Origin: a virus
Strand: one strand, 5' to 3'
Virus record (IMG/VR): IMGVR_UViG_3300047157_000068
Span: 1-64,000 of that record
DNA: 64,000 nt
Position numbers and translations under genes: made by a program. Of this stretch, positions 58,415 through 63,383 are shown piece by piece. Every line of letters starts with the position of its first letter. The stretch's first letter is position 1. Below the pieces are notes generated by a model. That model made no database searches, was not told where the DNA came from, and was given only the letters and a program-made list of their open reading frames with translations.

Positions 58415-58738
58415 TTATGCTTTGTATGTTTCTGGATACGCCTTAAACATTATATCTCTTAATTTTGCACACTTTTCATAGTCTTCTTCTTCTACGAAGT
58501 ACGCTATTATATTTTCTAATTCTTCAAGTTTTGGTCCGTTATCTGGATCATAAGCCATCACTAATTCTTTTCCTTCACTGAATTGACTTGATATAAGTTC
58601 GTCAAAAGTTATTTCTCCGGCCAGCAACATCCAAGCATTATTGTATGCAGTATCTAATATAATAGCATCCATTTGCATTTGTTGTATATCTGACAGTCCA
58701 CCCCCTTCTGTCTTATCATTATCATCCCAGTCTGCCAT
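58415..58738 (-). CDS. Acidic protein with C-terminal UVR (UvrB/C) motif
   Basis: FVEEEDYEKCAKLRD. Confidence 0.7.
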   Translation of the reverse strand: MADWDDNDKTEGGGLSDIQQMQMDAIILDTAYNNAWMLLAGEITFDELISSQFSEGKELVMAYDPDNGPKLEELENIIAYFVEEEDYEKCAKLRDIMFKAYPETYKA

Positions 58739-58774
58739 ATCATTTTATTTAGTGAGTAACTCTTCTATAAGAAC

Positions 58775-58784
58775 AATATACTAA
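58775..58784 (-). promoter_or_regulatory. Phage promoter motif TTAGTATATT heading the leftward block
   Basis: GTATATT core 37 nt upstream of the first leftward gene. Confidence 0.55.
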
Positions 58785-58899
58785 ATTTAAAAATCCTATG
58801 AAAATTTTTCTAGCACAACATGCCCCCGCCTACTGTAAAATTGTCCCTACGCCCCACCAAAAAATTGTGTGTTTGGCACTTTCAAGAGGTATTACTGTA

Positions 58900-59777
58900 C
58901 TGCTCCCCAACTAAGTTTTGCACCGGTGGTACCCCCTATCAACATTGGCTACTGCTGTGCAACTTGTGTAGAGATACAAAACAAGTGTACTAAAAAATAA
59001 AATGTACACATCTGTATCTCTCACAACGGAGTAGTGTAGTGCTACTGTGTCAACGTAAGTATCTACTGAATATCAGTACATCATTGATTTGTTTGTATTC
59101 ATCAGTAACTATAGTACGTACACACACTCACTACATAAAGGCATTTTCCAATGCCTCTGCTCCCAAACTATATAACGCATAGGTAATTATGCTTAATAAA
59201 CTTTCAGTAAATGTATTACCACATTTATAATCAAAAATTAAATATTAAACATTATGAATTTAGTAACAGTAAGAAAATCAGAAGACGGATTAACAGTAAG
59301 AACATCTAAAAACCCATTATACGGCTTTGTAGTAATGGAACAAAAAGGTGCATTTGCTGTATCAGCAACAGGCTGGGTGGATATAAAGACACCAACGTGT
59401 CTAATCCAAGGTACTATGGAAAACCTTAAAGCAATGGAAGAAACATTGAATAAAGGTTTAGTAGGTAAGATTGTGCATAAGGAAAGCTTAGAGCCTTTCA
59501 ATCTAAAAAATCCTATGAATGATATTAAGTATGCAGGTAAAACAAAGATAGCTTGCTCTGTAAAAGGAAAGCCTATCTATAGAGTATCTACATTTAGTGC
59601 TGATATTAATGCTGTAGATGAATTGATTGCTCATGATAATGGTAAACAAATATCTGAAGCTAACTTAAAAGGTCAGGCTGTAGAGAGTTTAAGTGCTCTT
59701 AAAGCAGAACCTGTAACTGCGTAACTGTAACATTAGGCTGTAGGCGTGCATTTCCATGCACGTCTGCTCCCTAACTA
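58900..59777 (+). repeat. Three copies of CTGCTCCCnAACTA (58900-58913, 59157-59170, 59764-59777), two preceded by TTCC-loop hairpins
   Basis: Read directly from the sequence. Confidence 0.85.
59254..59724 (+). CDS. Early protein, beta-rich (possible OB-fold/SSB-like); paralog of the 63702 gene
   Basis: Shares NPxYGF, GW, GKIVxxESLEPFN and KYAGxT with the 63702 gene. Confidence 0.75.
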   Translation: MNLVTVRKSEDGLTVRTSKNPLYGFVVMEQKGAFAVSATGWVDIKTPTCLIQGTMENLKAMEETLNKGLVGKIVHKESLEPFNLKNPMNDIKYAGKTKIACSVKGKPIYRVSTFSADINAVDELIAHDNGKQISEANLKGQAVESLSALKAEPVTA

Positions 59778-60105
59778 CAGCATGTTAGAACAAAATAGTT
59801 AACATTAACTAACAAAACTAAAAATGTTAGACTATAGTTACAAAACAGTTAGATAAACTTATTTATTGTGGTAATTTTATTTTATTTGTGTGTGTCACTC
59901 TGAATGTGAGGTCTTATACCCACTAAATACCACCTTTTACCACTCTTGTAACTATGAGTGTTACTAATAATATAAATATAGCTAACGTTACTACAAGCGT
60001 AACAATTACACTCAACAATACAACAAGGGTAGTCTTTGTCTCTTCCTCTATAGGATAAGAGCCATATTACCCGCAATATCAATAATCCTTAAATACTAAA
60101 TCATT

Positions 60106-60444
60106 ATGCAAATCAAATCAAAAACTAAATTACCAGAAACTGTAATAACTATCAGGTTAACCTCAGCAAAAGAAATGTATGACTTCAGTGAACTTACACA
60201 TAGCCATACAGAGTATGATACTGATTGGGATGAACTACTGTATACATTGAGTGAGTACAAAGGTATTGATTCACATATATATCTTCAGTATCCATCAGAT
60301 ATGCAACTCAAGAATGGGGATGTAGTTTGCACTATAACTTTGTATTGTAAAGATTATGAGAAACTAGATTATCTTGAGGCAGAGATAACCAAAAGAATAT
60401 CAACTGTATTAACAGTTACTTGGCCTTGGGAAAGGGATAACTAA
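60106..60444 (+). CDS. Hypothetical early protein
   Basis: ORF track; leader ACTAAATCATT-ATG. Confidence 0.75.
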   Translation: MQIKSKTKLPETVITIRLTSAKEMYDFSELTHSHTEYDTDWDELLYTLSEYKGIDSHIYLQYPSDMQLKNGDVVCTITLYCKDYEKLDYLEAEITKRISTVLTVTWPWERDN

Positions 60445-60468
60445 ATCATTCACTAAAACTAAATCGTA

Positions 60469-60645
60469 ATGGAAATAGCAAACATAGAAAGAAACTACAA
60501 CAAGCATGAAGATAAATATGAAATCGTTATGTGGGTAAAAGATACCGTAAATCATTCTAGAACACCAATAGTAGTAAAAGATACTACAAACAATAGCCTT
60601 AACTATGCTTATGCAAGTAAGCTATTTAAATCTTGGAATAAATAA
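60469..60645 (+). CDS. Small hypothetical protein, 58 aa (MEIANIERNYNK...)
   Basis: Leader ACTAAATCGTA-ATG; TAATG coupling to the next ORF. Confidence 0.65.
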   Translation: MEIANIERNYNKHEDKYEIVMWVKDTVNHSRTPIVVKDTTNNSLNYAYASKLFKSWNK

Positions 60646-60815
60646 TGTTCTTTGAAGATGCACAAGATGCTTGGGATTTATATAGTATAAGTCCTGAGCT
60701 AACATGTACCTGTGATGAAGTACATACATGTCAACAATGCTATGAAGAATGGCAAGAAGAAAAGAAACTTAGACTTCAAAGACTTGAAGATGCTCTGAAA
60801 GAGAGTAAAGAATAA
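60645..60815 (+). CDS. Small Zn-finger-like protein, 56 aa (CTCDEVHTCQQC)
   Basis: Translationally coupled; four Cys plus His. Confidence 0.65.
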   Translation: MFFEDAQDAWDLYSISPELTCTCDEVHTCQQCYEEWQEEKKLRLQRLEDALKESKE

Positions 60816-60825
60816 TAACTAATAA

Positions 60826-61216
60826 TCCTACCGTATGGATGGAGGTAAATAACGGAGTGAATATCTCTATTAGTTATATCTTTTTAACCCGTGGCAACGG
60901 GAGTGCTGGGTGTCACTTTGTACACCAAGAGGAATAGTTTGTCAGCTTAACCTCGTATACGTTAGGGCCAATGTGCCTGTAAGGTTTGACAACCTGAAAC
61001 CGTGTATTTGACTTGTCTGTTGAATATGTAACAGTCATCGTCAACCGGGTAAACGGTCGTTAAGAGGTAATCAGGCTCTTTATTTTTAACTACACTGATT
61101 GATGACACTAGAGATCAGTATAAATGTATGTGTCAAAAACTTAGAGCAATGAGTCACGCAATACCACTGACTATTCTGTAATAGTGTCAGCCAATAATGG
61201 ATAAGCACTCTAAGTT
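60826..61216 (+). ncRNA. Putative structured non-coding RNA(s), class unknown
   Basis: ORF-free, locally GC-richer, many nested helices. Strand inferred from flanking genes. Confidence 0.45.
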
Positions 61217-61243
61217 ATTTTTAATCACTAATACTAAATCGTT

Positions 61244-61423
61244 ATGAAAAAGAAATTTTGTTACCTTATGCTACTCCTATTCATAGGAGGACCAATACTT
61301 CAATCATGTGGATCATCTCGTGGTTGTAAGAAAATGAGAAAATACCGTAAGAAAAGAAGTAAAACTTCATATGCATATCAAAATGCATTAATCATTAATC
61401 AATTAAATACTAAACTATCATGA
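61244..61423 (+). CDS. Small basic lipoprotein, 59 aa
   Basis: MKKKFCYLMLLLFIGGPILQS-C lipobox; ATGA overlap with the next gene. Confidence 0.7.
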   Translation: MKKKFCYLMLLLFIGGPILQSCGSSRGCKKMRKYRKKRSKTSYAYQNALIINQLNTKLS

Positions 61424-61881
61424 AAAATTTAATCTTATCCTTATTTATTGGGCTATCATTTGCTTCTTGTCAGAAAGAAGAACTTGAAATAGTTCAACCA
61501 ATGCCACCAAGTAATACATCGTATGAAATATATGCTATGTCAAGTACTGGTGCAGGTGCATCTTTACTATGGACATACTTTATGTATGAGTCTATTGATA
61601 GTAATGGAGTAACCGCAGCTGATAAACTCGTAGCTAACTATAATGCTTGGCAACTTGTTTGTACTGAATGTGACAATGAGGATGAGTATTATATTTATTC
61701 TATGGACACAAGTCTAGTTAGTAATCCTGACGCAGTTGTAATAAGCTCGTTTAATTACGTAGACTTTGCAACAGTATATTTTAATAATGCTAACTCGCCT
61801 GTTGGTGATGGTAGATTTTATCTCTATCCTCATGACATGTTAGATAGCTACAACAATCTAGATCAAGTAACCTTATATTAA
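61420..61881 (+). CDS. Lipoprotein (likely surface-exposed)
   Basis: MKNLILSLFIGLSFAS-CQKEE signal peptide II followed by a K/E-rich export-like motif. Confidence 0.8.
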   Translation: MKNLILSLFIGLSFASCQKEELEIVQPMPPSNTSYEIYAMSSTGAGASLLWTYFMYESIDSNGVTAADKLVANYNAWQLVCTECDNEDEYYIYSMDTSLVSNPDAVVISSFNYVDFATVYFNNANSPVGDGRFYLYPHDMLDSYNNLDQVTLY

Positions 61882-63273: not shown

Positions 63274-63356
63274 TGCGTTAGCTATATTTATGCTTTTTAT
63301 TTTTGAATTAAGTCCAAATTCATTTTATATTTCTGACACAGGTTAAGTTATATTAT

Positions 63357-63364
63357 TATCTTTG
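63357..63364 (+). promoter_or_regulatory. Bacteroidota -7 element TATCTTTG
   Basis: Exact match 20 nt upstream of the 63384 start. Confidence 0.6.
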
Positions 63365-63383
63365 ATAAACATTAAATAAGATA

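Follow-up and report, generated by a model that had tools for sequence, protein, structure and literature searches.

The viral record studied here comprises 115,836 bp at 32.6% G+C, and its first 64 kb form the stretch of DNA that was analysed (the window). Leftward genes, which include those for terminase, capsid and large virion proteins, extend to 58738, and rightward genes run from 59254. The boundary between these two blocks is a divergent junction, and it is there that the copies of a short motif, CTGCTCCCnAACTA, cluster. No terminal repeat was seen in the record, and BLASTN of the motif region against GenBank phages returned no match.

The original prediction took the genome to be that of a crAss-like phage. 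This identification is borne out by a 3326-aa protein encoded beyond the window (genome 105604-115584, minus strand; L120:6605-16585), which carries DFDID at residue 2276 and matches crAss-phage polymerases. Its region matched 97 crAss-like records in tblastn, including the annotated RNA polymerase gene of IAS virus (E 1e-13); tblastn is the one search that makes this link, sequence searches of Pfam, PHROG and PDB all being without a match. Phmmer against solved structures also gave nothing. The protein is about 1100 residues longer than polymerases of the phi14:2 gp66 type. Judged by this homology, the genome encodes a candidate cognate polymerase for the elements described below.

Three copies of an extended motif at the divergent junction

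The three reported occurrences of CTGCTCCCnAACTA are exact copies, all on the plus strand (Table 1), and the whole 115,836-bp genome holds no further copy even when one mismatch is allowed. Searched with a covariance model that joins hairpin and motif, it gave only these three sites, scoring 64.7, 32.8 and 18.7 bits, the next match having an E value of 0.16. The motif is asymmetric, and all copies aim into the rightward gene block from its upstream edge. They are spaced by 257 and 607 bp with a gene in between, each copy standing ahead of its own unit; about 320 nt of non-coding sequence follow copy 3, until an ORF at 60106.

Table 1. Elements and neighbouring features at the head of the rightward block
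Feature	Position	Strand	Sequence or description
Copy 1 upstream block	58865..58899	+	TTGTGTGTTTGGC ... GAGGTATnAnTG; family-wide conservation; stands where the hairpin would be
Copy 1 core	58900..58920	+	CTGCTCCCCAACTA, AGTTTT, invariant G at 58920; without upstream hairpin
ORF-free stretch, about 220 nt	58920..59138	+	Several conserved hairpins, one A-rich loop; from alignment and RNAalifold
Copy 2 hairpin	59139..59156	+	AGGCATT-TTCC-AATGCCT
Copy 2 core	59157..59177	+	CTGCTCCCAAACTA, TATAAC, invariant G at 59177
First-gene 5' leader	59177..59228	+	Two conserved hairpins; covariation and G·U pairs in relatives
First rightward gene, 156 aa	59254..59724	+	Paralogue of the gene at 63702-64148
Extended helix at copy 3	59733..59774	+	From RNA folds of 26 variants
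Copy 3 inner hairpin	59745..59762	+	CGTGCAT-TTCC-ATGCACG
Copy 3 core	59764..59784	+	CTGCTCCCTAACTA, CAGCAT, invariant G at 59784

The element is real and spread well past the window. Pattern scans retrieved relatives from 26 viral contigs and 36 metagenomic contigs, the latter contributing 18 new sequences. Three copies are present in 33 of the 34 family records with at least 1.8 kb of sequence downstream of copy 1, and four in the remaining one (the metagenome contig L310). In two other complete relatives, 116,157 and 114,829 bp long, the copies again form a cluster of exactly three, with none elsewhere.

Aligning 62 distinct units from these genomes showed that the conserved unit is longer than originally described: it reads T-CTGCTCCC-h-AAyTA, followed by six A/T-rich bases and an invariant G. 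Position -1 is T in 60 units and position 0 is C in 59; TGCTCC is then invariant, and the next C is present in 61. After TGCTCCC come one variable base that is never G, two A residues and a C or T, then an invariant TA and six positions that are nearly pure A/T. The G at +20 is found in 62 of 62 units and is usually followed by C or T and then A.

Copy 1 lies in a long context that is conserved on both sides, GGTACCCCC. We considered the block upstream of it as a sigma-70 or Bacteroidota -33/-7 promoter and, judging by reading, found that its spacing fits neither. The recognisable form of this block recurs in a distant 110.7-kb relative (G005; L345 8020-8560), a genome of the class with direct terminal repeats, as GGAGGTATCTATTA before TCTGCTCCCC. 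G005 has a single motif copy, with core sequence CTGCTCCCCAGATCA, at the junction 70 nt ahead of the first rightward gene. The whole unit reads GGAGGTATCTATTA-TCTGCTCCCCAGATCA-AAAAT-G, with the G retained at +20 and the flanks conserved but without a conserved hairpin; a 95-aa gene and a canonical terminator follow. The non-coding region past this terminator resembles window positions 59880-59990.

Covarying hairpins and RNA-type structure

Both hairpins named in the original prediction are present as drawn before copies 2 and 3. Copy 1 showed none in the DNA fold, and a hairpin is lacking at that copy in every genome. In 71-nt windows at copies 2 and 3, the plus strand folded as DNA with z scores of -2.7 and -4.1. 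We found 14 hairpin types across the family, with stems of 6-8 bp and, in every case, a TTCC or TTTC loop closed by T·A; on the template strand the loop always reads GRAA. The closing T·A aside, no bases are common to all the stems, and eight unrelated inner stems occur (GGCATT, TGCATT, GGGTTT, CACGTT, GTGCAT, CGTGCT, CGTGGT and GCCTGT). Pairing is Watson-Crick throughout, save one C·A pair in one variant. The distance from hairpin to motif, which had been singled out for checking in relatives, is kept in all 14 types, the motif beginning 7-8 nt past the last loop base; the earlier figure of 8-9 nt is an inclusive count of the same spacing.

A constant structure on a changing stem had been taken as a sign of selection, and the relatives show exactly this. 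In an ungapped alignment of 18 sequences 94% of cells are paired and five of the seven stem pairs change on both sides, compared with 15-52% pairing in controls in which the partner was slid by 1-3 columns; the covariation lies largely between paralogous copies and among related genomes, and the changes counted are therefore not independent of one another. Selection acts on the hairpins that precede copies 2 and 3. Genome-wide, plus-strand hairpins with the same loop and a stem of at least 5 bp occur only at the two motif sites, and a shuffled genome yields 0.9 of them (0.1 with a stem of at least 6 bp). The hairpin thus never stands alone, and the motif does. No intrinsic terminator, as a GC-rich hairpin with a T-run, was called at the hairpins, which are followed by CTGCTCCC. 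Mimicry of CRISPR repeats was also considered and discarded, as the stems differ between copies of one genome.

At copy 3 the hairpin sits in a longer helix. The longer stem first proposed, GCTGTAG/CTACAGC, is seen in the DNA fold; the RNA fold favours instead GTAGG (59740-44) paired with TCTGC (59763-67), plus TTAGG (59733-37) paired with CCTAA (59770-74), an extension that covers most of the motif. The complementarity is maintained in other lineages by GGGTAG, or by AGTAG plus GGG, and an A-to-G change in one relative (L102) is retained as a G·U pair. These wobble pairs (G·U/G·T) work only on the plus, non-template strand, implying that a non-template-strand or RNA structure burying the 5' half of the motif is selected at copy 3. 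No comparable extension is present at copy 2 or at the fourth copy of L310.

The helices downstream of the copies carry 8-30% plus-strand G·U pairs together with compensatory changes. In the leader of the first gene, one hairpin starts from the invariant G itself (59177-59192, GCATA..TATGC) and a second follows (59208-59228, TAAATGT..ACATTTA). Conserved RNA-type hairpins at or just past the invariant G point to plus-strand RNAs that begin near it. The ORF-free stretch between copies 1 and 2 is a candidate early non-coding RNA, judging from its conserved folds; it opens with GCAG, which is able to pair with CTGC of the next motif. Rfam covariance models run over 58600-61500 at E values up to 1 gave nothing relevant.

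The first rightward gene has a 148-aa paralogue 4.4 kb downstream (45% identity, E 4e-36) and no match in Pfam or PHROG. An AlphaFold2 model (pLDDT 81) has a small N-terminal beta-barrel. This model gave no significant fold match, with nothing below E 0.1 in Foldseek and VIA as the best hit at Z 4.2; the label "SSB-like" is unsupported, SSB and PriB rows at Z of about 3 being noise. In more distant phages the homologue is present in one copy and has an acidic tail ending in TFEL.

The lineages vary in how hairpins and terminators are distributed. In a divergent subgroup (L133/L135/L322 and others) the three copies follow the consensus TTATTCTGCTCCyyTGCTA and have no conserved hairpin, and canonical GC-hairpin and T-run terminators lie between the first gene and copy 3; in the main group the hairpin is present and canonical terminators are missing. 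An AGCAG/CTGCT pairing in the divergent subgroup was examined as a shifted hairpin and dropped, as it is not conserved in L326. L310 has a cassette of two or three small genes inserted between copy 3 and a fourth hairpin plus motif, giving four sites within 1.7 kb, one per cassette; the fourth hairpin begins immediately after a stop codon. In the region from -150 to +2450 of its copy 1, the extra cassette genes encode 60 and 116 aa, the cassette is flanked by the new stems CGTGGT and ACACGTT, and the copy 2 stem is GGGTTT. Given a hairpinless copy 1 everywhere and a single hairpinless copy in G005, copy 1 looks ancestral, and the hairpin-plus-core units look like a clade-specific expansion.

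Candidate promoters of a phage polymerase

Host-type signals in this genome lie elsewhere. In 98 Bacteroidota rrn leaders (L147-L266), a comparison for which the host phylum is assumed on the strength of the crAss-like polymerase, two words are enriched: TACCTTTGCACC, a -7 box of the form TAnnTTTG, and the boxA-like GTTCTTTGAA. Both lie upstream of the 16S start, the former by about 260 nt and (A)GTTCTTTGAA by about 115-130 nt. On its plus strand the phage has clear TAnnTTTG boxes between genes, in the orientation of the genes they precede, at 63298, 63357, 69167, 73188 and 95984; intergenic DNA from 58.7 to 63.2 kb has none in plus orientation. At the elements themselves, copies 2 and 3 are without TTTG, and copy 1 has TA-n3-TTTG, one base too long for a sigma-A box. 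The lack of a TAnnTTTG box suggests that the first 4.4 kb of the rightward block use a different signal. Such an order, a small early class and then a middle class, would by analogy match the pattern of crAss001, whose early genes lie at the physical genome end and in which a small early class likewise precedes a middle class.

In the region 63276-63365, the first -7 boxes of the rightward block read TATTTTTG (63298) and TATCTTTG (63357) and lie right past inverted ATATAGCTAACG. A direct ATATAGCTAACG copy is found at 59976-59987, in the non-coding stretch past copy 3, and is conserved in L310; direct and inverted copies bracket a 3.3-kb early cluster. As for the motif and the block upstream of copy 1, sigma-70, sigma-54 and Bacteroidota -33/-7 readings were rejected by eye on spacing rules. 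A consensus scan gave fewer sigma-70-like sites than shuffles did.

We propose that a phage-specific polymerase, most probably the injected virion RNA polymerase of the DFDID type, uses the elements as promoters, and give this reading a probability of roughly one half. It is favoured by the copy number, the position at the block edge, the sense orientation, the extended core and the plus-strand RNA structure that starts from the G. It is also favoured by a hairpin that is selected and coupled to the motif, by the crAss-type polymerase homologue that the genome encodes, and by host-type boxes that precede other genes but not those of the first 4.4 kb. Furthermore, the inserted cassette of L310 brings its own hairpin and motif, and the single copy in G005 stands before the first rightward gene with its G in place. 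The elements also stand at the very head of the block whose phi14:2 counterpart is early and depends on the virion polymerase. Early promoters of the virion enzyme, as originally proposed, are accordingly plausible from block position and polymerase homologue; what did not stand is the hairpin as a general requirement.

In such a scheme, copy 1 would launch the structured non-coding RNA of about 220 nt, copy 2 the 156-aa gene and copy 3 the remaining early cluster. The core of about 21 nt would comprise a specificity part, (T)CTGCTCCC-h-AAy, and an A/T-rich part, TA plus six W, that melts; transcription would probably start with the invariant G. The small TTYC-loop hairpin abutting copies 2 and 3 would belong to the same unit as the core. 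It might be extruded as a DNA hairpin that helps a single-strand-preferring polymerase to open an internal promoter, or might be a signal that stops or insulates the unit before it and is joined to the start of the one after. Copy number, orientation and covariation are direct observations, as are the anatomy and position of the element and the RNA-type structure downstream; from them we infer the start of transcription at the G and the identity of the polymerase that acts there.

Some of the evidence pulls the other way. The long conserved block upstream of copy 1 could be the sole true promoter, just three sites would have to serve the early region, the core resembles the rrn boxA, and the wobble extension at copy 3 shows that read-through RNA matters there. 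The whole 30-kb rightward module of phi14:2 is rifampicin-resistant, with no common motif found (Drobysheva et al., 10.1101/2020.03.07.982082), and the motif studied here is absent from that phage; both facts count against promoters.

The best-surviving alternative, which we regard as a minority possibility, makes the hairpin an end signal for the unit before it (a terminator, an insulator or a structure that protects the 3' end), joined to the promoter that follows. It accounts neatly for hairpins at internal copies only: copy 1 would need none because nothing is transcribed into it. The L310 hairpin that begins right past a stop codon fits as well, and so does the exchange between lineages, with canonical terminators after the first gene and no conserved motif-adjacent hairpin in the divergent subgroup and G005 and the reverse in the main group. 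Extension of the copy 3 helix by plus-strand G·U pairs implies selection at the RNA level, again in keeping with an end signal. Nevertheless, no U-run follows the hairpin, and neither the last unit nor any other gene ends in a hairpin of this kind. An ordinary terminator, moreover, needs no invariant loop, closing pair or fixed distance to the motif.

We consider it unlikely that the hairpin is an N4-style recognition element, a template-strand DNA hairpin with a GRAA loop that is extruded by supercoiling and read by the virion polymerase. The inner stems do look like DNA: they have no G·U pairs, compared with 8-30% in the neighbouring RNA-type helices, and their sole non-Watson-Crick pair (L029/L140), C·A on the plus strand, is G·T on the template. 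The constant template loop and T·A closing pair, the fixed hairpin-motif junction and the absence of any hairpin without a motif also favour this idea. N4 has exactly three early promoters, with loops stabilised by a sheared G:A pair, and phi14:2 gp66 favours single-stranded templates. Against it, the conserved hairpin is lacking at every copy 1, at the divergent subgroup's three copies and at the single copy of G005, and about 30 nt separate its centre from the invariant G, where N4 has its hairpin at -11. The polymerases are unrelated, and the helix extension of copy 3 can pair on the non-template strand only. The dispensable hairpin, the distance and the plus-strand extension reduce N4-style recognition to one of several possible hairpin roles; of the likeness originally drawn to N4, the compensatory stems and the purine-rich template loop stood, and the claim weakened on the hairpin's dispensability and upstream location.

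In a joint reading, which we hold to be doubtful, these would be the first promoters to be recognised for the virion RNA polymerase of the crAss type (two-barrel, QDE-1-like), and they would work as stop-start junctions. Copy 1, with its long conserved context, would be a full entry promoter, followed by compact hairpin-plus-core junctions at each of which this one injected enzyme finishes a unit and begins another. The hairpin would then act as a DNA or RNA structure read by this single-strand-preferring polymerase.

Still less probable are RNA-level sites of the boxB/boxA (nut-like) kind, acting in antitermination or processing on a single long early transcript begun upstream of copy 1. The core, UGCUCCCnAAC in RNA, does resemble the E. 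coli rrn boxA, UGCUCUUUAACA, and that of Aquifex, GGCUCCUUGGCA. In rrn leaders a hairpin stands before boxA, an order that the elements recall, and the motif of copy 3 is embedded in an RNA-type helix; the true promoter could be the long conserved block ahead of copy 1. This explanation is rated so low because the likely host phylum uses another boxA, GTTCTTTGAA being the conserved word, and because 0 of the 98 rrn leaders carry the phage motif. Nus factors, moreover, act on the host polymerase and early crAss transcription is driven by the virion enzyme; copy 1 has no hairpin, four sites in 1.7 kb with one per cassette are unlike nut sites, and an invariant G at fixed +20 past an A/T stretch has no role in boxA. 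Mimicry of the host boxA, considered separately, is likewise unsupported by the 98 leaders of the assumed phylum.

Improbable too are DNA sites unconnected with initiation, such as an operator for an early regulator, a replication origin or priming signal, or a packaging signal near a genome end: the elements do cluster in a divergent junction, crAss001 has its early genes at a physical end, and nick or priming sites share the layout of a hairpin with adjoining conserved single-strand sequence, but the motif is asymmetric, its copies have a gene between them and each precede their own unit, RNA-characteristic structure lies at a fixed distance downstream, and the record shows no terminal repeat.

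Relation to known systems

Promoters of crAss virion polymerases had been described as undefined, and this agrees with our literature search, which covered publications later than the phi14:2 study and found none that defines a promoter for this polymerase class. If the promoter reading is right, the element would offer a concrete template for biochemistry on how an injected crAss-like polymerase chooses its start sites, having a core that does not vary, a candidate start base at a fixed place and a hairpin that covaries. Natural variants are at hand, with and without the hairpin and in three- and four-copy genomes. The element also serves to mark the early region and its non-coding RNAs when genomes of this marine or environmental phage clade are annotated.

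The rrn and lambda nut sites (boxB plus boxA, PMC3177189) resemble the elements in having a conserved-loop hairpin beside a linear motif, in leaders, and the E. coli boxA shares UGCUC..AAC with the motif. The differences are that the likely host phylum uses its own boxA word, that CCC replaces the U-run here, and that a fixed downstream G, an A/T stretch and one site per gene cassette are found here.

In the early promoters P1-P3 of N4 the hairpin, with a stem of 5-7 bp and a loop of 3 nt, is itself the core promoter and has its centre at -11 (PMC4496689). As in N4, three sites lie at the start of the early region of a polymerase-injecting phage (PMC4496689), the hairpins are small, with stem bases that vary and a template-strand purine loop that is conserved, and the polymerase favours single-stranded DNA. 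In contrast to N4, the hairpin here is dispensable and stands about 30 nt upstream of the likely start, with a 4-nt loop followed by a 14-nt linear motif. N4 also conserves bases inside the stem, whereas these stems have only the closing T·A in common, and its virion polymerase is T7-like, whereas the crAss enzyme is a two-barrel polymerase.

A parallel in layout is offered by promoters of the T7 type and by those of P23-45, whose single-chain two-barrel virion polymerase uses a conserved sequence motif (10.1101/2022.12.01.518664). Common to these and the elements are a contiguous conserved stretch of about 20 nt that is lineage-specific, specificity and A/T-rich parts, a G at the presumed start, and few copies placed before early or pre-early genes. 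The elements differ in having no sequence similarity to them, in the added upstream hairpin and in a start site that is predicted only.

Finally, the phi14:2 virion polymerase transcribes the rightward early block and prefers single-stranded DNA; once purified, it starts efficiently on single-stranded templates only, and no promoter is known for it (10.1101/2020.03.07.982082). That phage does have a repeat, TTAACAAyTAAAACTAA(AGAAyAAATG), just ahead of several early start codons (L344, 260-280, 1958-1986, 2171-2188 and 3573-3592), which is probably a translation-start context unrelated to the CTGCTCCCnAACTA motif. The absence of a common upstream motif in phi14:2 sets it apart from the present genome. 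In both phages, however, there is a rightward early block with gaps near its start: in phi14:2 the long gaps produce abundant early non-coding RNAs (10.1101/2020.03.07.982082), and here the first gap holds the candidate non-coding RNA that would start at copy 1.
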